Positions 1 to 29,168 of a stretch of DNA of 41,081 nt are shown here, piece by piece. A program made the translations under genes and the position numbers. The stretch is from Verrucomicrobiia bacterium (GTDB taxonomy: Bacteria; Verrucomicrobiota; Verrucomicrobiia; Palsa-1439), in assembly GCA_025056465.1 (NCBI GenBank), contig JANWVU010000003.1, forward strand, positions 1-41,081, read 5' to 3'. Each line of letters starts with the position of its first letter. The stretch's first letter is position 1. The notes under the pieces are model-generated. The model ran no database searches and was not told the DNA's origin. It worked only from the letters and a program-made list of their open reading frames with translations.

Positions 1-256
1 CGCCGTCAGGTCTTAGCGAGTAGCAAATGAGCGCGACGATGACGAACGACGATGCGACCAGCTACACGGCGGAAGCTATTGGCCACCAGCGCGGCGCGAC
101 TGGTGCTGGTCCCGTGGGCGGCAACCGGTTCACGTACACGGGCCGGGAACCGCTCGGCGACACGCAGGGTCTGTACTCCTACCGCTGGCGCGTGATGGAT
201 CCGAATTTAGGCCGGTTCACCAGCGAAGACCCGCTGGGGTCGTGGATGGGGTGAAT
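1..256 (+). repeat. Direct repeat copy (motif + RHS core start), partner at 6604-6860
   Basis: cgccgtcaggtcttagcgagtagcaaATGagcgcgacgatgacgaacgacgatgcgaccagctacacggcggaagct recurs exactly at 6604. The 3' part (taccgctggcgcgtgatggatccgaattt...gacccgct) is also near-identical; the middle diverges. Confidence 0.95.
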
Positions 257-662
257 ACCTATCTTTATTTATGTACAGAACACGCCTTTATATGCCATTG
301 ATCCGTACGGTGAGGTTTCAATCGGACCGATCGTCAGAATCATCAGTATCATCATGAATGCAATTCTTGGCGATTGCGCTGGCGTGCCTATGGGTACTGA
401 GACAGCTCCCGTTACTGTTTCAGGCTCGTGTTATCGCGTATGTCAGCCCATGCCGGGTAGTTCCGAATGTCCCTCATGCCAGAATATGTATGGTAAGGGG
501 CATGGACAAGCAATTTACCGTTGCGAGAGCACCCTGGTAGGCAAAAAGTTTATCTTCAATCGTTGGGCTTCGCCTCCTTTTTGCGACGCTCCTCCTTGTA
601 ACAGCTCTGGCAGCTCGTCAGGTTTTCGATGCATTGAGGTGGCAGTGCATATAAGCTTTTAG
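27..662 (+). pseudogene. RHS repeat-associated core cassette A with Cys-rich C-terminal tip (interrupted)
   Basis: RFTYTGRE...GLYSYRWRVMDPNLGRFTSEDPLG, then in-frame TGA at 252-254, then same-frame YVQNTPLYAIDPYG (DPxG at 300-311) running into ORF 354..662 (9 Cys). Confidence 0.85.
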
Positions 663-705
663 AATTAGGTTTTTCGGGGTGGTATAGATAAAAGGAAAGC
701 ATGTA

Positions 706-1002
706 ATGACGACATCCTTTTTTGTTGAGCTTGGCATTTACTTGCTTGTTTGTGCTTGCTTGTGTGGGATAGCCTGCAAGACGGGACGGGACCTGAGTTT
801 TGGATTATGTATGTTTATTCCGTTCCTAAACTTTTTGCTGATAGTGTACTTGGCGTTTAGCACATGGCCCATTGAGCGAGAAATTGGAGAACTTCGCGCC
901 CGACTTGATCACGAACGAGAACTGGCAAGCCATCGGGGTCAGGTCGGGCAACTAGCGGATGAGTGCCACCCCGACAGATACCAACGCCACCGCTTACGCT
1001 AA
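706..1002 (+). CDS. Small membrane protein, putative immunity for cassette A
   Basis: Two hydrophobic segments (FFVELGIYLLVCACLCGIA; LCMFIPFLNFLLIVYLAF), directly after the RHS tip. The 3' end reads through the degenerate boundary motif. Confidence 0.6.
   Translation: MTTSFFVELGIYLLVCACLCGIACKTGRDLSFGLCMFIPFLNFLLIVYLAFSTWPIEREIGELRARLDHERELASHRGQVGQLADECHPDRYQRHRLR
935..958 (+). repeat. Degenerate GGGGTCAGGTC boundary motif
   Basis: ggggtcaggtcgggcaactagcgg immediately before the ATG at 959; aligns with gtcaggtcttagcgagtagcaa before the ATGs at 27 and 6630. Confidence 0.7.
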
Positions 1003-1837
1003 CGAAGGGTTCGGTCGGGTGCGCGGCGCGCCCGACCGACCCGGTGTTCCAAGCCAATACCGCGACCGGCCCATCGCCGTCCGCCTATTCGCTTACAACA
1101 TCGGCGTCACCAAATGTAACAGCGTCACCGAAATTGCCGTCTTCGAGCACTGCATCCGCGACGACCTCAATGAACGCGCCCTCCGCCGGCTCGCCGTCTT
1201 GCGCCCCCTCAAAGTCGTCATCGAAAACTACCCTGAATCTCAAATCGAAATGCTCGAAGCCGTGAGCAACCCCGAAGACCCCAGCGCGGGAACGCGCCAA
1301 GTTCCGTTCTGGCGTGTCATTTACATTGAACAGAACGACTTCCGTGAAGTTCTACCGCCCAAGTGCTACCGGCTCAGCCCCGGCACCGAAGTCCGGCTGC
1401 GCTGCGCGTACCTCATCACCTGTACCGGCATCGTCAAAGAGCCGCAGACCTGTGCCGTCGTCGAAGTACAAGCCACCTACGACCCAGCCATGCGCGGCGG
1501 CAACACCCCCGACGGTCAGAAAGTCAATGCGACTCTGCATCGGGTTTCAGCCGCCCACGCCGTGGATGCCGAGTGCCGGCTATACGACAAACTGTTCACC
1601 TGCCAGGAAACGGACGCCGATGGTGGTTTCAAGAAGAACCTCAATCCCCACTCGATAGAAATCGTTACCGGCAGATGCGAACCGAGCCTTAGCACAGCGG
1701 TACCGGCAGAACGATACAAGTTTGAACGGCTCGGCTGCTTCGCACTCGATTCCGACTCTCACCCCGGCATGCTGGTCTTTAATCGCGTCGTGACTCCTAA
1801 AGAAGCCTGGGCGAAGATTGAGAAGAGAAAAAAGTAA
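959..1837 (+). pseudogene. glnS: Chimera: RHS-core start (~24 aa) fused to the C-terminal half of glutaminyl-tRNA synthetase
   Basis: MSATPTDTNATAYANEGFGRVRGA matches the cassette at 5352. From ~1070: IRDDLN..RRLAVLRPLKVVIENYP, NPEDPSAGTRQVPF, YIEQNDF, RLSPGTEVRLR, FERLG, LVFNRVV. No HIGH catalytic half; conserved Y/W residues are replaced. Confidence 0.85.
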
Positions 1838-1872
1838 CCGATCAACTGTAGAGGAACAACAAACTTCGTAAG

Positions 1873-3012
1873 ATGCGCGCTGTGACAATCACCTTGCTGA
1901 ATACTAGAAGTGATGCGGAACGAATTCGCGCAATTTGGCATATGTTGAACTCTTCGCAGGAGGTTTCCTACTTTTTGTCTGTAGGTTGGGTGGAAAACTG
2001 GCTCGCAACCCTGCCGGAGGATGTATCGGTCTCACTGGCTGTCATATCACAAGCAGAAACACCAGTAGGTGCATTTTTCATAGGCAAATCGCGCGTTGTG
2101 CGCAAACGGGTTTTCAGAAGCCAAGCCGTTTTTTTGAATACCACTGGGATGCCGGAGTATGACGCCCTGTGTATTGAGTACAATGGAATTCCGTTGACCG
2201 ACGGGCACAAATGCGATTTAATGGACATTATTGAGTCCCTCCCAATTGACTGGGACGAGATATTTTTCCCTGCCCTCGACTCCAAAGCATTTCCGGCTAA
2301 TTCTCTGGACACATTAAGACCGCCGTATGTGCTCGTAGTCGATAAGGTTGTCCCCTCGCCCTATGTTGATCTCCAATCTGTTCGAGAAGCTAAAGATGGC
2401 TACATTTCGCTGCTTAGTGCGAACACACGCCAACAGATTCGCCGCTCATATCGACGTTATCAAGAGAAAGGCCCGCTGAACTGTCGTGCGGCAGCGAATG
2501 CTGCTGAAGCTCATGATATGCTCGCCGAATTGATACGACTTCATCAGGCAACTTGGATGGCGAGAGGTAAACCAGGAGCGTTTGCATCAGCCTATTTTCG
2601 AAAGTTTCACGAACGATTAATCGAAACTCGATTTCACACCGGGGAAATTCAGCTATTGCGCATCTCCTTTGGAAACACGGTCGTTGGTTATCTGTACAAT
2701 TTTATTTTTCGCAGGCGTGTCCTATTCTACCAAAGCGGACTTGCATACACTACTGATCCGCACTGCAAGCCCGGGTTGGTTTGCCATGTGGAAGCCGTGC
2801 GTGTGAATGCTGAGGCTGGCAATCTGACGTATGATTTTTTGGGTGGAGAGAGCCGTTACAAACTCAGTTTAGCCACACACCAGAACCGATTGATCTGGGT
2901 ACGAATCCAGAAGCCAAGGATGAAATTCAAAATTGAAAGAAAATTGAGAGCTATAAAGCAGTTGCTAATCGCTTGGCGTTCAAGCCGAAAGCAGAATATA
3001 TATGAGCAGTAA
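1873..3012 (+). CDS. GNAT-family N-acetyltransferase (CelD/BcsL, Acetyltransf_6-like)
   Basis: 379 aa; LSANTRQQIRRSYRRY, LIRLHQATW, FYQSGL, KPGLVCH, YDFLGGESRYKLSLA. Confidence 0.8.
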   Translation: MRAVTITLLNTRSDAERIRAIWHMLNSSQEVSYFLSVGWVENWLATLPEDVSVSLAVISQAETPVGAFFIGKSRVVRKRVFRSQAVFLNTTGMPEYDALCIEYNGIPLTDGHKCDLMDIIESLPIDWDEIFFPALDSKAFPANSLDTLRPPYVLVVDKVVPSPYVDLQSVREAKDGYISLLSANTRQQIRRSYRRYQEKGPLNCRAAANAAEAHDMLAELIRLHQATWMARGKPGAFASAYFRKFHERLIETRFHTGEIQLLRISFGNTVVGYLYNFIFRRRVLFYQSGLAYTTDPHCKPGLVCHVEAVRVNAEAGNLTYDFLGGESRYKLSLATHQNRLIWVRIQKPRMKFKIERKLRAIKQLLIAWRSSRKQNIYEQ

Positions 3013-3048
3013 AGCCCATTTTTCTGGATTTCTCGTAACCGATCGGGG

Positions 3049-3699
3049 GTGCTCTTGAATGCCAATGTGATTCTCTTGCCCGTAAAGCATGGCAGAAATT
3101 TTCTACGCGACAAGATCGCATGGATCCGAAGGAAAATTCTTCTCGAGTGTTGTCTTCCTACTGGCACGGTCTGTAATGCAGCCATTCCGGTTATCTATAG
3201 GTTCGGCAGCGAATCTGATGTCAACAGGCTTACACTGACTGCCCATGACTATGACGAAGAGGCAAAACGGTTTGCCATAGAGCGGCTTCGATCCGGCGAT
3301 AGACTGGTTCTTGGAGAATATCTAGGAGATATCGTATTCTATGGATGGATTATGTTTGGGCAGATGGATTTGGGCTATCGAAGCTACAGGCCAATTTCGA
3401 AGGATACAGCCTATGTTTACAAACTGTTTACCGTGAAGGAGCATCGCGGGCGTCGCGTATTGCCCGGGTTTTACCGGTTCGTCGCAATGCAACTTGAGGA
3501 AATAGGAATCAAACGGATGCTCTGCTGGGTCAACAGCACAAATGTTCCGTCACTCAAATCGCATACACGCTGTGGATTTCTGCCCATTGGCAGTTTTTAC
3601 GAGATTCAGTTGTTTGGGAAGACGCATTATGTTTTAACTCGGCAAGCACGCCTTTCTATTGGTGACCAGACACAAGCGATTCCAAGGAAAAGAGAATGA
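3049..3699 (+). CDS. GNAT-family N-acetyltransferase (start uncertain)
   Basis: AYVYKLFTVKEHRGRRV acetyl-CoA motif A; NVPSLKSHTRCGF motif B. Confidence 0.75.
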   Translation: MLLNANVILLPVKHGRNFLRDKIAWIRRKILLECCLPTGTVCNAAIPVIYRFGSESDVNRLTLTAHDYDEEAKRFAIERLRSGDRLVLGEYLGDIVFYGWIMFGQMDLGYRSYRPISKDTAYVYKLFTVKEHRGRRVLPGFYRFVAMQLEEIGIKRMLCWVNSTNVPSLKSHTRCGFLPIGSFYEIQLFGKTHYVLTRQARLSIGDQTQAIPRKRE

Positions 3700-4712
3700 A
3701 TAAGCGAGAAATGTTGGCATCGCAATTTCGCCGACTGGGCATTTTGTGGCTGTTGGAGCAGTTTCGGTTGCGCCGTGGTTTGCTGGTGGTCAACTATCAT
3801 CGTATTGGGGCTTACGAGGGCAATCAGTTCGATGACGGCGTGTTTTCGGGGACGCCTGAGGATTTTGAAGCGCAGGTGGTGTACTTGCGCAAGCATTTCC
3901 GCCTCTTACGTTTGGATGAAGTTCTAGAATTCTCTCGTGCTGGGTTTCAATTTCCGGAACCCTGTGCTCTGATCACTTTCGACGACGGTTATCGTGACAA
4001 CTTTGATCTGGCTTTTCCCATCCTTCGCAAGCACGGTGTATCGGCGGTGTTCTTTGTGCCCACAGATTACATTGAAAACCCACGTTTACCTTGGTGGGAT
4101 CACATCGCCTACGTCGTCAAAAAGACGCAACTTAGAACGCTCTCGCTGAGAACCACACCACCTATGACGATTGACTTAACCACAACGTCTCGGAGGAAGG
4201 CTATCTTCCAAATCCTTCGGGCTTACAAAACCGCCAACAAGGCCGACGAAGCAAGATTTCTATCTTCGCTAGAAGAAGCCTGCGAGGTGCGCGTGGATCG
4301 CGCAACCTTGGGGCGCGAATTGTTTATGTCGTGGAGTGATTTGCGCCAAATGGCTGATTCCGGCATGAGCATTGGCTCGCATACGCACACCCATCAGATT
4401 CTCGCACAACTGCCGGTGGCTGATCAGCGGCGCGAGCTTCGCCTATCACGGGATCTGTTAGAGATTAACCTAAAGAAATCTGTTTTAGCTGTTTCATATC
4501 CTGTGGGAGGGAGGGATAAATTCACGGTGACCACCAAGCGGCTATGTCGCGAAGAGGGCTACGAACTTGGTTTTTCGTTCTACGGGGGCATTAACCGCCC
4601 CCGACAGACAGATTCCCTCGACATCAAACGCATTGGAATTGAAATAACTGATGGTCCATTGCTGCCGCGTACTCGAATGGTTTTGACAACTGTCTTCGGA
4701 AGGACCTTCTAG
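3696..4712 (+). CDS. Polysaccharide deacetylase (CE4/NodB)
   Basis: YHRI, LITFDDGYRDN, GSHTHTH, SYPVG motifs; 4-bp overlap with the upstream gene. Confidence 0.9.
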   Translation: MNKREMLASQFRRLGILWLLEQFRLRRGLLVVNYHRIGAYEGNQFDDGVFSGTPEDFEAQVVYLRKHFRLLRLDEVLEFSRAGFQFPEPCALITFDDGYRDNFDLAFPILRKHGVSAVFFVPTDYIENPRLPWWDHIAYVVKKTQLRTLSLRTTPPMTIDLTTTSRRKAIFQILRAYKTANKADEARFLSSLEEACEVRVDRATLGRELFMSWSDLRQMADSGMSIGSHTHTHQILAQLPVADQRRELRLSRDLLEINLKKSVLAVSYPVGGRDKFTVTTKRLCREEGYELGFSFYGGINRPRQTDSLDIKRIGIEITDGPLLPRTRMVLTTVFGRTF

Positions 4713-4722
4713 GGGGGCTTTT

Positions 4723-5315
4723 GCTGAACACCTCGACGCCATCAACAACCCCGAAGACCAGACAGCAGGCACCCGCAAAAGACCTATCAGCCGTGAACTC
4801 TACATCGAACAAGACGACTTCATGGAAGTCCTGCCACCCAATTTCTTCCGCCTAAAACCCGACGGCGAAGTCCGCTAGAAATACGCCAACATCATCAAGT
4901 GCGACGATGTCATCTAAGACGCCACCGGCAACGTCATCGAACTCCGCTGCACAGCCGACCTCACTAGCGAGACCGGTGGCGCCACTGCCGATAGGAAATC
5001 AAAGGCACCATCCACGGGGTCAGCGCCCAGCACTGCATCGAAGCCGAGTACCGGCTTTACCACCGTCTCTCAACCGAGGCCAAGCCCGATGCCGACGGCG
5101 ATTTCAAGAAACACCTCAACCAGCATAGCCCCGACATTGTCACCGCAAAGTGCGAACCGAGCCTCACCAACGCGAAGCCCAAACTCCGGGACCAATTCGA
5201 GCGGCTAGCCTATTTTGCCGTCTACCTCTATAGCAAAACCGGCAAGCTGGTCTTCAATCGGACGATCACCTTGAAAGACACTTGGGCCAAAATTGAAAAG
5301 AAGGGGAACTCATGA
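4723..5315 (+). pseudogene. glnS: Second glnS 3' fragment (anticodon-binding domain), decayed; absent from the ORF track
   Basis: Hand translation: EHLDAINNPEDQTAGTRKRPISRELYIEQDDFMEVLPPNFFRLKPDGEVR*KYANIIKCDDVI*DATGNVIELRCT (stops at 4876 and 4915). After a frameshift near 4998: IKGTIHGVSA..RLY..DADGDFKKHLN..KCEPSL..QFERLAYF..LVFNRTITLKDTWAKIEKKGNS*. Confidence 0.9.
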
Positions 5316-5317
5316 AA

Positions 5318-5340
5318 TTCAAGTTTCAAGAGTTGACCCC
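5318..5340 (-). repeat. Inverted copy of the GGGGTCA-type boundary motif
   Basis: ttcaagtttcaagagttgacccc matches the reverse complement of 7535-7557 at 21/23 positions. Confidence 0.85.
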
Positions 5341-5351
5341 CATGACCTCGA

Positions 5352-6015
5352 ATGAGCGCGACACCGAGAGACACCGATGCGACCGCCTTCGCCTACGAAG
5401 CGTTCGGCCGAGTGCGCGGCGCGACCGGTGCCGGCCCGGTCTGCGGAAAGCGCTTCACCTACACCGGTAGGGAACCGCTCGGCGACACGCAGGGTCTCTA
5501 CTACTACTACTACTACCGCTGGCGCGTGATGGATCCCAATGCGGGCCGCTTCACCAGCGAGGGTCTGCTGGGATTTGTGGATGGGGTGAGTCGTCAAAAT
5601 TATGCCCCTCTAGATCCCCGTTACTTTATAGATGTCTTCGCCTTGAGCGTGGCGTCCAGTCCAATTTCAGCTACCTCAATCCCTCTCGGCTTTTGGAATG
5701 TAATCGGATCGAGTTTTTTGCTGCGACTTCGTGGGTACCTTTTAGCTCGAGCATCGGCTTCTATGCTGTTGACACCCCTTCAGCGGTTGGCTGGGTGTCC
5801 CGCTTGTCTGCGTGTTCCAATGTCATTGGAAACAACCGGTTACCGAGATTGTCACCGAAAGACGCATGCGTTTTCAGTGGGGCACGTATGAGTGTTGGGA
5901 CGATTGTAACGGGACTTATTGGTTGGAACAGCGGAGCGAATTTACCACGGAACTACGTAATCGGTGGCGTAGGCGATCGGATTGGAAAACGACCGAGTTT
6001 TCTTCTATAAGCTAG
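5352..6015 (+). pseudogene. RHS core cassette C with degenerate DPxG and probably frameshifted tip
   Basis: YEAFG..RFTYTGRE..YYYYYYRWRVMDPNAGRFTSEGLLGFVDG..NYAPLDPRYFIDVFAL; both DP motifs are damaged. The tip may continue in ORF 5812..6015. Confidence 0.7.
5499..5516 (+). repeat. (TAC)6 microsatellite
   Basis: Six TAC codons versus three in the paralogue at ~6777. Confidence 0.9.
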
Positions 6016-6030
6016 TGTTTACCTGCTTCG

Positions 6031-6573
6031 ATGCTATCGCCACAGACCATAAGTTGGTTGATGTTGGCTGCAGGGTTGAGCGGGTGGATGTGCGGCTGCT
6101 CGCGGCCATCCTCGACATCAGATTGGTTGCGCGACGAAGAGGAACGTCTGGAATTGCAGTTGCAGGCGAATCCTTCGGATTGTGTAGCGAACGAACAACT
6201 CTCGGTAATCTATACAGCGCGAGCCGTCGCTGCAGACCACGCGCAGCACGCGGATAGATTGGCCTTGCGTGAACGCGCGCTGAGTATGGTCCGCGTTGCC
6301 TTGGGCTGTGTCACAAATCCGACGCAGAGGGTATTTCTCGCCTTTCGCTTGGAAGCACTCGGTGCGCGGGAGGAAGCATTACCGATCTACCGTTCATTTC
6401 TGGAAAGCACCACTGGTTCTGAAGGAGAAATAGATCGGTCGTTGGTTGCGAGTCCTGAGATATATCGGCAGTTGTTGCATGAGCAACAGGAACTAAGGCG
6501 TGAGGTTCAGCGGCGCCTTGCCAGGTCGAACGGCATCGACGAACTGGGCCAGATCTCGGGAACCAGCCGATAA
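6031..6573 (+). CDS. Putative lipoprotein, helical/TPR-like, immunity candidate
   Basis: Hydrophobic N-terminus ending WMCGC-S (lipobox-like); helical repeats such as LGAREEALPIYRSFL; follows cassette C. Confidence 0.55.
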   Translation: MLSPQTISWLMLAAGLSGWMCGCSRPSSTSDWLRDEEERLELQLQANPSDCVANEQLSVIYTARAVAADHAQHADRLALRERALSMVRVALGCVTNPTQRVFLAFRLEALGAREEALPIYRSFLESTTGSEGEIDRSLVASPEIYRQLLHEQQELRREVQRRLARSNGIDELGQISGTSR

Positions 6574-6603
6574 AGTGGACCGGTAACCGAAAGTAAAAGC
6601 TGC

Positions 6604-6860
6604 CGCCGTCAGGTCTTAGCGAGTAGCAAATGAGCGCGACGATGACGAACGACGATGCGACCAGCTACACGGCGGAAGCTTTTGGCCACCAGCGCGGCGC
6701 GACGGGTGCCGGCCCCATCGGTGGCAAGCGCTGTATGCACACCGGTAGGGAACCGCTTAGCGGCATGCAAGGTCTCTACTACTACCGCTGGCGCGTGATG
6801 GATCCGAATTTGGGCCGGTTCACCAGCGAAGACCCGCTAGGGTTCGTGGATGGGGTGAAT
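6604..6860 (+). repeat. Direct repeat copy of 1-256
   Basis: Same leader and RHS core start as cassette A (offset 6603). Confidence 0.95.
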
Positions 6861-7097
6861 GTTTATGCTTACGCAGTCGCTCGTCCTTTGCGATTGAAGG
6901 ACCCCAGTGGTCGTGCGGCGACTCCGATAGCAGACCAGACTACGTGTCAAGACCGATGCGGTCGAGTGCCTTGTCCGTTATTAAGAAGGAACCAGTGTTT
7001 GCGTACCTGTTACGCATGCTGTATCGGATGCGGCGATGATCCGAACTGTCATGATGCGTGCATTGCAGCTCATGTGCTCTGCTGTATGGGTCGATAA
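6630..7097 (+). CDS. Uninterrupted mini RHS core cassette D with 12-Cys C-terminal tip
   Basis: GLYYYRWRVMDPNLGRFTSEDPLGFVDGVNVYAYAVARPLRLKDPSG, followed by a ~60 aa Cys-rich tip. Confidence 0.85.
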   Translation: MSATMTNDDATSYTAEAFGHQRGATGAGPIGGKRCMHTGREPLSGMQGLYYYRWRVMDPNLGRFTSEDPLGFVDGVNVYAYAVARPLRLKDPSGRAATPIADQTTCQDRCGRVPCPLLRRNQCLRTCYACCIGCGDDPNCHDACIAAHVLCCMGR

Positions 7098-7114
7098 ATG
7101 CCCTCCTCAATGCC

Positions 7115-7549
7115 ATGAGACGCAAACTGATTTTTCAGGCGGTTTTATGGGGATTATGTTTTGGAGCTATCGAAGCGATTGTTTCGACTGCTTGGTTGGA
7201 GTTGGGGTGGGGCAAGCACGGTGCGACAGCTTGGACGCCAGAGCTGAAAGCGTACTGGTGTGTCGTGTGGGCTTGGCTACCGGCAGCCGTTCTCGCGGTG
7301 GCCTTGGGTTTAACGCTAGGCAGTCGGGGAGATCATGGGTGGTTTTGCACTGCACTCTGGGGCGGCGTCGTTTATGTGAGTTTCCCTTACGTGCTGGGGG
7401 TAGTGGTTGGAGCGAAGTGGTGGAGTTTCGGGCTTCCCTCGATTGTCTGGAATCTCACAGCGGGCGTAGTCTTAATTGCGCTTTGTTTGCTGAGTGCGCG
7501 GGTTGTTCGTAGCAACACGTTGAAAAAAGGCGACGGGGTCAGATCTTGA
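7115..7549 (+). CDS. Four-TM membrane protein, putative immunity for cassette D
   Basis: ATG at 7115 (MRRKLIFQAVLWGL...); four hydrophobic segments; stop TGA lies inside the boundary motif. Confidence 0.7.
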   Translation: MRRKLIFQAVLWGLCFGAIEAIVSTAWLELGWGKHGATAWTPELKAYWCVVWAWLPAAVLAVALGLTLGSRGDHGWFCTALWGGVVYVSFPYVLGVVVGAKWWSFGLPSIVWNLTAGVVLIALCLLSARVVRSNTLKKGDGVRS

Positions 7550-7557
7550 AACTTGAA
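7535..7557 (+). repeat. GGGGTCAGATCTTGAAACTTGAA REP-like boundary motif
   Basis: Inverted partner at 5318-5340; related half-motifs at 5-14, 935-945 and 6608-6617. Confidence 0.85.
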
Positions 7558-7640
7558 GTGCGGCGGCCAGTCATAGCGAGGACGATACCTAGTAGTGAGA
7601 ATGGGTTGTTCTCGCCGTGCCGGTTGCTATGAGGCGGGGC

Positions 7641-7845
7641 ATGACGAGGCCGATTTGAGTTGAATTGTGCGTGAAAACGGTGGGGCGTGTTTCTTCTGAC
7701 TCGGCTCACGGGGGCGGTGTGGATCAGGTCACGGCCCGAAGCTATCAGCGGCGCGGAGTCTACCGCGATGATTCGGACCGGCGGGCGTTTCTGAGCACGG
7801 TTTGGGCACGGCTGAGCGGTTCAGGGTACGGGTGAGGGCGGATGG
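7641..7845 (+). mobile_element. Decayed REP-associated/IS200-like Y1 HUH tyrosine transposase, N-terminal remnant
   Basis: MTRPI*VEL...GGGVDQVTARSYQRRGVYRDDSDRRAFLSTV, then frameshift to GTAERFRVRVRA. Resembles the family start MARPLR.E..GG.YHVTARGN.R..I.RDD.DR..FL....AERF...VHAY. Confidence 0.75.
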
Positions 7846-8165
7846 CGAGCAGAGGGAGGGTGCGCTGCGTGGAACACTCGATAGCCATGAGCGGGGATGT
7901 TTCAAGGTTCATGAATTGATCCCATAGGACCGGGCATTTAAAACTTGGTACATTGCACCGGCACGCCAAACAATAGCTTACCCGGTGAAGCGATGCCGGT
8001 AACCGCGCGGGCGCGCCAGCGCGAAGTTGTTGGGTTGCTCCGAAAGCTTGTGAGTGAGCGGGAAGAGCGATGCAGGTATCCCTACGCCCGGGATGTCCAT
8101 CCGTCGCAGGATGAAGGCGGTTTTGCGTGCGGATGGCGGGACCGGTTGTGTTGGATGGCAAGGTG

Positions 8166-28475: not shown

Positions 28476-29168
28476 ATGGGACAGAAAGTAAATCCGGTAG
28501 GGTTTCGCGTCTCGGTGACCAAGGATTGGTTGTCGAAGTGGTATGCCGAGAAACGGGAGTATGCGCCGTATTTGTTGCAGGATTTGCAGATCCGCGATTA
28601 TGTGAAAAACAAACTGGCATCGGCGGCCGTGCCAAAGGTGCTGATTGAGCGGTTCGCAAATCGCGTGCGAGTGATTGTATACACAGCGCGACCGGGCGTG
28701 GTGATCGGGCGAAAAGGGGCGGAGTTGGAGAAGTTGAAGAGCGACCTGGCAGAGATGACGGGCAAGGAGATTTATCTGGAAATTCGTGAGGTCAAGGATC
28801 CCGAGGTGGATGCTCAGTTGGTCGCGGAGAACGTGGCATTGCAATTGGAGCGACGAATCAGCTTTCGGCGGGCGATGAAAAAGGCGGTGCAGACGGCGAT
28901 GGAAAAAGGTGCGATGGGGGTCAAGATCCAATGCGGGGGTCGGTTGGGAGGAGCGGAGTTGGCTCGTAGGGAGAAATACCGGGTGGGGAAAATTCCCCTG
29001 CACACGTTGCGCGCGGATATTGATTATGGTTTTGCGGAAGCGAACACGGTGTACGGAAAGATTGGCGTGAAGGTTTGGATTTGCAAAGGGGAGCGACCGG
29101 GCCCTGAGACGCGACCGGCAGCGGAGAAAACACCGTCGGCGGCAACTGCGGCGGGGACACCTGCGTGA
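28476..29168 (+). CDS. rpsC: 30S ribosomal protein S3
   Basis: [33 protein letters not shown]. Confidence 0.99.

Follow-up and report, generated by a model that had tools for sequence, protein, structure and literature searches.

The window analysed here, a stretch of 41,081 nucleotides from a Verrucomicrobiia bacterium (GenBank assembly GCA_025056465.1, contig JANWVU010000003.1), makes up the whole of contig C203 in a metagenome-assembled genome of 269 contigs (2.38 Mb, 81% complete). It contains a gutted transposon of the type called TIRtron, a solo terminal inverted repeat (TIR) behind a stray glnS fragment, and an array of Rhs orphan cassettes that lies between and upstream of both (Table 1). 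An earlier note, made from the letters of the sequence, had described four RHS toxin/immunity cassettes, each preceded by a related short motif, beside a decayed Y1 transposase gene, and had proposed that motif and transposase build or shuffle the array in an integron-like way. The quoted motifs and the four 'MSAT' start codons were all found in place: GTCAGGTCTT at 5-14 and 6608-6617, GGGGTCAGGTC at 935-945, ...GTTGACCCC ending at 5340 and GGGGTCAGATCTTGAA at 7535, with the ATGs at 27 (cassette A), 959 (B), 5352 (C) and 6630 (D). An in-frame stop stands 3-6 nt ahead of each ATG, and the open reading frames (ORFs) begin there.

Table 1. Features of the Rhs array and the decayed TIRtron, in window coordinates.
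Feature	Positions	Strand	Remarks
Leader of cassette A, contig start	1..26	+	GTCAGGTCTT at 5-14; identical to 6604-6629; no TIR-profile match at E <= 10
Rhs core end and toxin tip A	27..662	+	ORF 27-254, then probably ORF 354-662 past a frameshift near 239; TIGR03696 E = 5.7e-8
Small hydrophobic ORF, putative immunity gene of A	706..1002	+	Enters the B leader; no family match; role from position only
Possible degenerate left-type TIR (GGGGTCAGGTC...)	935..957	+	Ends 1 nt before ATG 959; 74% over 27 nt to 7527-7553; profile (931-941) E = 4.6
Chimeric ORF in which an Rhs 'MSAT' start (~24 aa) runs on into glnS fragments	959..1837	+	PF03950 and PF20974 matches
Three cargo genes between the glnS fragments: GNAT (Acetyltransf_6), GNAT, polysaccharide deacetylase	1873..4712	+	Pfam
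Second, decayed glnS 3' fragment	4723..5314	+	One TAG and one TAA in frame; 67-73% identity to G014 glutaminyl-tRNA synthetase
Solo right-type TIR TTCAAGTTTCAAGAGTTGACCCC	5318..5340	+	3 nt past glnS-fragment stop, 11 nt ahead of ATG 5352; profile (5319-5346) E = 3e-8
Rhs core end and tip C	5352..5891	+	TIGR03696 E = 1e-7
Putative immunity gene of C	6031..6573	+	ORF; no family match; role from position
Leader of cassette D, duplicate of A leader	6604..6629	+	No TIR-profile match at E <= 10
Rhs core end and tip D	6630..7097	+	TIGR03696 E = 7.9e-16
Putative membrane immunity gene of D	7036..7512	+	Probable start ATG 7114; no significant Pfam match; start and role inferred
Left TIR of decayed TIRtron (GGGGTCAGATCTTGAAACTTGAA on + strand)	7535..7557	-	Profile (7529-7557) E = 7.7e-4; placed relative to Y1 gene as in G014
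N-terminal remnant of TIRYT (Y1/HUH) gene	7641..7835	+	~60 codons, in-frame stop, HUH region deleted
Degenerate right TIR of decayed TIRtron	7901..7923	+	3-4 mismatches to the 23-mer; profile (7897-7924) E = 5.4; supported mainly by position behind the remnant

The repeat unit is the 23-mer TTCAAGTTTCAAGAGTTGACCCC. A repeat search showed that its copies at 5318-5340 and 7535-7557 form an inverted repeat (21/23 positions) that brackets cassettes C and D, and within the genome assembly the 23-mer is confined to the window. For comparison we used 45 genomes (~160 Mb) of related Verrucomicrobiia, coded G000 (the genome of the window), G002, G042 and so on. The identical 23-mer, letter for letter, recurs in other genera (G014, G017, G041 and G016), and with up to three mismatches it is present in 23 of the 45 genomes, against none for the reversed control. 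Inverted copies of the repeat flank an intact gene for a protein of 317-347 aa in G014, G017, G013, G015, G049, G024 and G042, and two of these proteins match the PF01797 family (Y1_Tnp; E = 2.5e-14 and 8.9e-15). An exact inverted repeat of at least 16 nt ending in ..TGACCCC was found at 27 of 52 Y1 loci (52 of 65 loci were examined), Pirellulales and Lentisphaerae included. Overall the ends of these Y1 elements are inverted repeats of 16-32 nt, the inner part of which varies with the Y1 gene copy while the terminus is constant. In the family genomes a generic TIR pattern gave 161 matches versus 6 in the control (~1 per Mb), with 0-19 TIR copies per genome; several genomes hold more than one copy of the Y1 gene (up to 11 matches).

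Judged by its sequence, the motif is thus the terminal inverted repeat of a TIRYT-type Y1/HUH transposase element, or TIRtron. The text of Di Nocera et al. (2013; PMC3733652) describes this class with the TIR consensus GGGGWSAS, and that of Quentin et al. (2018; PMC6006769) treats it as subclass 2.1 of TnpA-REP. In the window, the GGGGWSAS terminus is fitted by GGGGTCAG at 7535 and, as reverse complement, by GGGGTCAA at 5340. The earlier note was right that the decayed Y1 gene is real and that motif and gene belong together, the motif being the gene's own terminal inverted repeat. By tblastn, 7641-7802 aligned to residues 1-40 of an intact homologue (44% identity, E = 4e-6), and the DNA at 7706-7843 matches G014 at 75%. 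Because it is homologous to intact PF01797 genes of relatives, the remnant is a decayed member of the TIRYT family. The remnant itself gave no Pfam match and lacks the HUH region, and a search of the rest of the 81%-complete assembly found no PF01797 gene. The gutted element spans 7535-7923 and has the same layout as that of G014.

Two further features of the repeat were seen in the relatives. Past the ..GACCCC terminus (columns 30-35 of alignment A2), GAC or TGAC comes in many copies after a spacer of two or three variable bases; this may be a further half-site or a preferred target. Solo TIRs of the variant GTCA[CT]GAGTGCGGAG (L082, L083 and L085; G046, G050 and G058) carry on their inner side a conserved stretch with GGTTCGATCC, recalling a tRNA T-arm.

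A TIR profile was built from 74 copies in relatives, picked with a terminus-fixing pattern, and it therefore leans on the terminus. In the whole assembly, with 150 of 876 candidates scored, two sites had E < 0.1, and both lie in the window: the solo TIR ahead of cassette C and the left TIR of the decayed TIRtron. Neither the B site nor the presumed right TIR was significant, and the A/D leaders had no match at E <= 10. The claim that a related motif precedes all four starts consequently survives at C, is doubtful at B and is reduced at A and D to a shared 10-mer in what are duplicates of each other. The 8-mer GGGGTCAG occurs six times in the window versus 1.46 expected (0/100 shuffles reach six), and the genome-wide scan suggested by the earlier note found no enrichment of it, with 63 occurrences versus 49.5 expected under a second-order Markov model. 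As the short motifs are not enriched genome-wide, the 8-mer and 10-mer are poor markers. Single-strand DNA folds of eight motif sites gave z-scores of +0.8 to -2.3, with no strong hairpin, and an Rfam scan of 1-9000 returned tRNA-Thr only, so that the motif matches no known RNA family. An alignment made by eye of the A/D leader with the stretch from left TIR to Y1 start (14 matches, two gaps) had suggested that the two were homologous; this idea was dropped.

Cassettes A, C and D match TIGR03696 (Rhs_assc_core) and have the features of Rhs orphans, in that each is a core end that lacks the shell and the N-terminal part. Across 257 nt, with the 26-nt leader included, 1-256 and 6604-6860 share 90% identity; as duplicates, A and D count as one observation. 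At the position of the cleavage motif, A and D have DPLG and C has SEGLLGF (GLLG) instead. No Pfam family matched tip A, and neither the tips nor the small downstream ORFs had any family match; the toxin and immunity labels are putative. From frames read by eye, ORF 354-662 may be the continuation of tip A.

Hot-spring metagenome runs contain close copies of the window. The community check was made with Logan contigs of four runs (X1-X4), which may include the source sample and in which rare forms are invisible. Local junctions are spanned by X1 contigs at 898-5419 and 6847-8138 and by X2 contigs at 700-1217, 4909-5499 and 5478-6800. Stretches without listed contig cover, such as 1-210, carry no evidential weight, and the window begins at a contig end that falls within an exact repeat of 77 nt. 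An extra T behind 239 is present in some X1 and X2 contigs; with it, by frame reading, the Rhs A frame would run into ORF 354-662. Community contigs also carry an extra CTA behind 5497, within the run of Tyr codons in cassette C. An X4 contig, 97% alike, aligns from 946 onward only, inside the B motif, leaving its opening 18 letters unaligned. Elsewhere in the genome, contig C55 breaks off (at 29168) within an Rhs frame that is open over 1581 aa; compared by eye, the break corresponds to the 'MSAT' start of the orphans, and the frame may belong to the expressed rhs gene upstream of the array.

The reading of B as a fourth toxin cassette had to be given up. After about 24 Rhs residues, this ORF continues into two pieces of glutaminyl-tRNA synthetase (GlnRS): by BLASTP, residues 27-292 correspond to GlnRS 341-607 (55%) and residues 16-45 to GlnRS 169-200, with the joint around a shared 'RGAPDR'. 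The junction between Rhs and glnS is covered by the X1 contig at 898-5419 and the X2 contig at 700-1217. An intact glnS lies on contig C253 of the same genome, where a weak TIR-like match (6238-6259, E = 0.18) was seen ~1.7 kb downstream of it. In G042, G004 and G002, too, a glnS stop is followed within ~10-16 nt by a 23-mer-type repeat; because this pairing recurs, the copy at 5318 is a conserved neighbour of glnS, and it was probably brought in by the glnS fragment, not by cassette C. In four genera, additional partial glnS 3' ends follow glnS or lie close to TIRs (L017 5765-5911; L023 5208-5342 and 6013-6144; L030 2188-2310; window 959-1837 and 4723-5314). Their recurrence suggests that modules of glnS end and TIR were copied or transferred together.

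The border role that the earlier note assigned to the motif is seen more clearly in relatives. An Rhs query matched in only 11 of the 45 family genomes, and the TIR was sought at their Rhs loci with patterns of up to 6 mismatches. On contig C8 of G042, a TIR variant in one orientation separates four Rhs cassettes, the homology between cassettes starting 5 nt outside the TIR (2513, 3979 and 5283) and the ATG of the orphans ('MNRNRTN...') lying 3 nt inside it. All five G042 orphans with an assessable 5' side carry the TIR (three on C8, one each on C30 and C11); contig ends interrupt two others. This TIR-Rhs junction is also present twice in G045 and in a degenerate form in G013, where the left TIR of a TIRtron also truncates the start of a short Rhs orphan. 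In G000, G013 and G002:C44, no more than ~1.2 kb separates Rhs tips from a Y1 gene or a Y1 fragment. Where the G042 array ends, a 415-nt duplication (L067 6791-7205 vs 7293-7707, 94%) of the 5' end of an unannotated ORF was noted, with two TIRs (7210 and 7253) between the copies.

A similar picture was obtained from 80 metagenomic loci retrieved with the Rhs core end of the window. The profile gave 11 hits in 9 of them (E <= 0.1), and all 11 run against the reading direction of Rhs; ten are found 0.6-3.5 kb past the core end, the other 709 nt ahead of it. A strict TIR pattern matched 7 times in the 361,161 bases of these loci and not at all in the control, against ~1 per Mb for the generic pattern in family genomes, and several loci have an Rhs 'GNRTN' stretch behind the TIR. 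The exact G042/G045 junction pattern had no match in the metagenomes, a result of little weight given how strict the pattern is. The place of the TIR at Rhs borders is non-random, and in this Verrucomicrobiia family the conserved 5' block of many Rhs orphan cassettes has as its outer edge a TIR copy in one fixed orientation. The motif marks fixed borders in relatives, at the 5' side of Rhs orphans; within the window, start C alone has a statistically supported copy. TIRtrons and Rhs orphans are each known, and in the text of the papers found, figures and supplements aside, neither their fixed junction nor any link of TIRYT or RAYT to Rhs orphans appears.

One rearrangement was observed directly. 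In an X3 contig, 5492 is linked to 6771 across an overlap of 9 nt; this contig is a recombinant inside the Rhs core, and it ends at 7541, within the left TIR. Strain comparison thus yielded a breakpoint inside the core and none at the motif: no joint at a TIR was present among the contigs of the four runs, although contigs drop rare forms. We consider it somewhat better than even (about 55%) that the TIRs are transposon ends carried passively with cassettes that shuffle by homologous recombination. A Y1-catalysed insertion would once have put a TIR at an rhs fragment; the TIR would then have multiplied and been exchanged with the cassettes through homologous recombination in the conserved core block, while illegitimate joins such as the Rhs::glnS fusion added to the array, and it would now be a passenger. 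The system is fossil in the genome studied here: the gene survives as a remnant, the assembly gave no PF01797 match and only two TIR sites reach E < 0.1.

Several observations weigh against passive carriage or against the border role on which it builds. It leaves unexplained why the GGGGTCA terminus has been kept in G042, G045 and G013 although their TIRs otherwise diverge, and why Rhs arrays stand beside TIRtrons or Y1 fragments in G000, G013 and G002:C44. The B and A/D leaders have no significant match to the profile, so that the window taken alone is no demonstration of TIR-bounded cassettes. The Rhs orphans of G010:C166 (two tips), G011:C79 and G002 C72, C30 and C11 gave no TIR match with the patterns used, and the sole match near a G002 tip, on C47, has 5 mismatches and lies ~2.6 kb away. 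The metagenomic hits are not independent, because most come from one metagenome, and as the assembly is 81% complete an intact TIRYT may be unassembled.

The main competitor is an active shuffle, in which an HUH enzyme nicks direct-repeat TIRs, frees cassettes as single-stranded circles and re-inserts these at a different TIR, in the manner of an integron without an integrase. HUH enzymes are able to initiate at one site and terminate at the next direct copy, and same-orientation TIRs do bound cassettes in G042 and in the metagenomic loci (11/11). The proximity of arrays to a TIRtron or Y1 fragment in G000, G013 and G002:C44 would also fit, as would at least two junction positions in the Rhs core ('MSAT' in the window vs 'MN[RS]NRT' elsewhere) and the partial duplications of neighbouring genes beside TIRs, namely the glnS 3' ends and the 5' end of the unannotated ORF on G042:C8. 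However, the 'NRTN' junctions look like one diverged old junction, in which case descent alone would explain the shared TIR orientation, and the TIRs at Rhs borders differ from those flanking the resident Y1 genes in G042, G045 and G013. The Y1 gene of the window is dead, the single-strand hairpins are weak, the sole variant seen breaks within the core and the contigs of the four runs hold no TIR joint, with the caveat on rare forms given above. We therefore regard an active shuffle as rather unlikely. The more specific proposal that TIRYT nicks the TIR at the outer edge of the orphan homology block, thereby freeing a single-stranded cassette circle or starting gene conversion into an expressed rhs gene, is more doubtful still. 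The integron-like building or shuffling put forward in the earlier note is not established by these data, because only one start is supported, the transposase is a remnant, the breakpoint is internal to the core and the TIR variants at the borders do not match.

The TIR could also be read as a portable expression signal whose inner end would give a start codon, and perhaps a promoter, to silent 5'-truncated Rhs fragments. In G042, G045 and G013 the ATG that lies 3 nt within the TIR shares the frame of the Rhs fragment, a similar '...GAAATG' stands behind solo TIRs of a related variant in G046, G050 and G058, and a left TIR lies 31-46 nt ahead of the Y1 gene too. In metagenomic variants, however, the TIR ATG is out of frame with the 'GNRTN' Rhs frame, the spacing is too tight for a usual promoter and leader, and 5'-truncated Rhs fragments lack the shell and delivery domain, making a working toxin product unlikely; we hold this role to be very improbable. 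Little credence likewise goes to chance or artefact, that is coincidental short motifs or a chimeric metagenome contig, an explanation that applies to the A/D and B sites only. In its favour are the absence of genome-wide 8-mer enrichment, the failure of the A/D and B sites in the profile test and the start of the window at a contig end within the 77-nt exact repeat. Against it, the 23-mer pair, identical to copies in other genera, cannot be chance, and X1 and X2 contigs span the local junctions. Chance is refuted for the sites labelled C and E, and is the default for A/D and B. Passive carriage was ranked first, the active system second and the expression signal third on account of the differing TIR variants, the one diverged old junction, the weak hairpins and the core-internal breakpoint.

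TIRYT and RAYT enzymes are widespread and their benefit to the cell is unsettled, while Rhs orphan arrays are thought to be remodelled by homologous recombination only. A fixed-orientation TIR at the edge of orphans, seen in several Verrucomicrobiia genera and in metagenomes, offers a testable place for a possible action of a Y1/HUH enzyme on toxin diversity. Were the reading with TIR nicking true, this would be an HUH-driven toxin-switching system, in which the TIRYT/RAYT family had found a new use. Should the repeat be no more than a passenger, the motif has still been named, and the fixed cassette starts are explained as inheritance of one old junction.

The array can be set beside several known systems. 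In enterobacterial Rhs orphan toxin/immunity arrays, displacement proceeds by recombination in the core, and the cassettes described here resemble them in their 5'-truncated core ends, variable tip, small downstream ORF and core-internal recombinant; they differ in that their starts are fixed rather than ragged and that in relatives the edge of the 5' block is a transposon TIR. H-rpt elements of the ISAs1 family, which sit in E. coli Rhs loci, are likewise mobile elements habitually lodged there, but they have a DDE transposase and to our knowledge have not been reported at cassette borders. With integron attC cassettes, the loci share foldable direct repeats in one orientation at cassette borders and an enzyme gene at one end of the array. 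The enzyme is of another class and dead here, there is no sign of excision, and each cassette contains a long homologous block. The G042 C8 array has a site at every border, whereas the window has two significant sites, and the gene beside its array, where an integron would have a working site-specific enzyme, is the decayed Y1 gene. IS200/IS605 elements would be expected to have subterminal direct hairpins without TIRs, unlike the 16-32-nt inverted ends found here. REP/RAYT systems and REPINs are similar in pairing an IS200-related Y1 enzyme with its own co-varying, flanking short repeats, but no GTAG tag was seen, the high-copy palindromic repeats with a GTAG or CGTC tag that define REPINs were not found, copy numbers are 0-19 per genome (two significant here) and the Y1 gene is multi-copy in several genomes. 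Compared with TIRtron/TIRYT elements as published, the copy in the window is gutted, the C-terminal extension of intact relatives has no Pfam helix-turn-helix match at E <= 0.01, and the published accounts, figures and supplements aside, are silent on Rhs or toxin cassettes. The texts of those accounts and the present loci agree in the Y1/HUH gene flanked by inverted repeats with a GGGGWSAS-type terminus, in the low to moderate numbers of solo, paired and clustered TIRs, and in the long extension after the Y1 domain of intact relatives.

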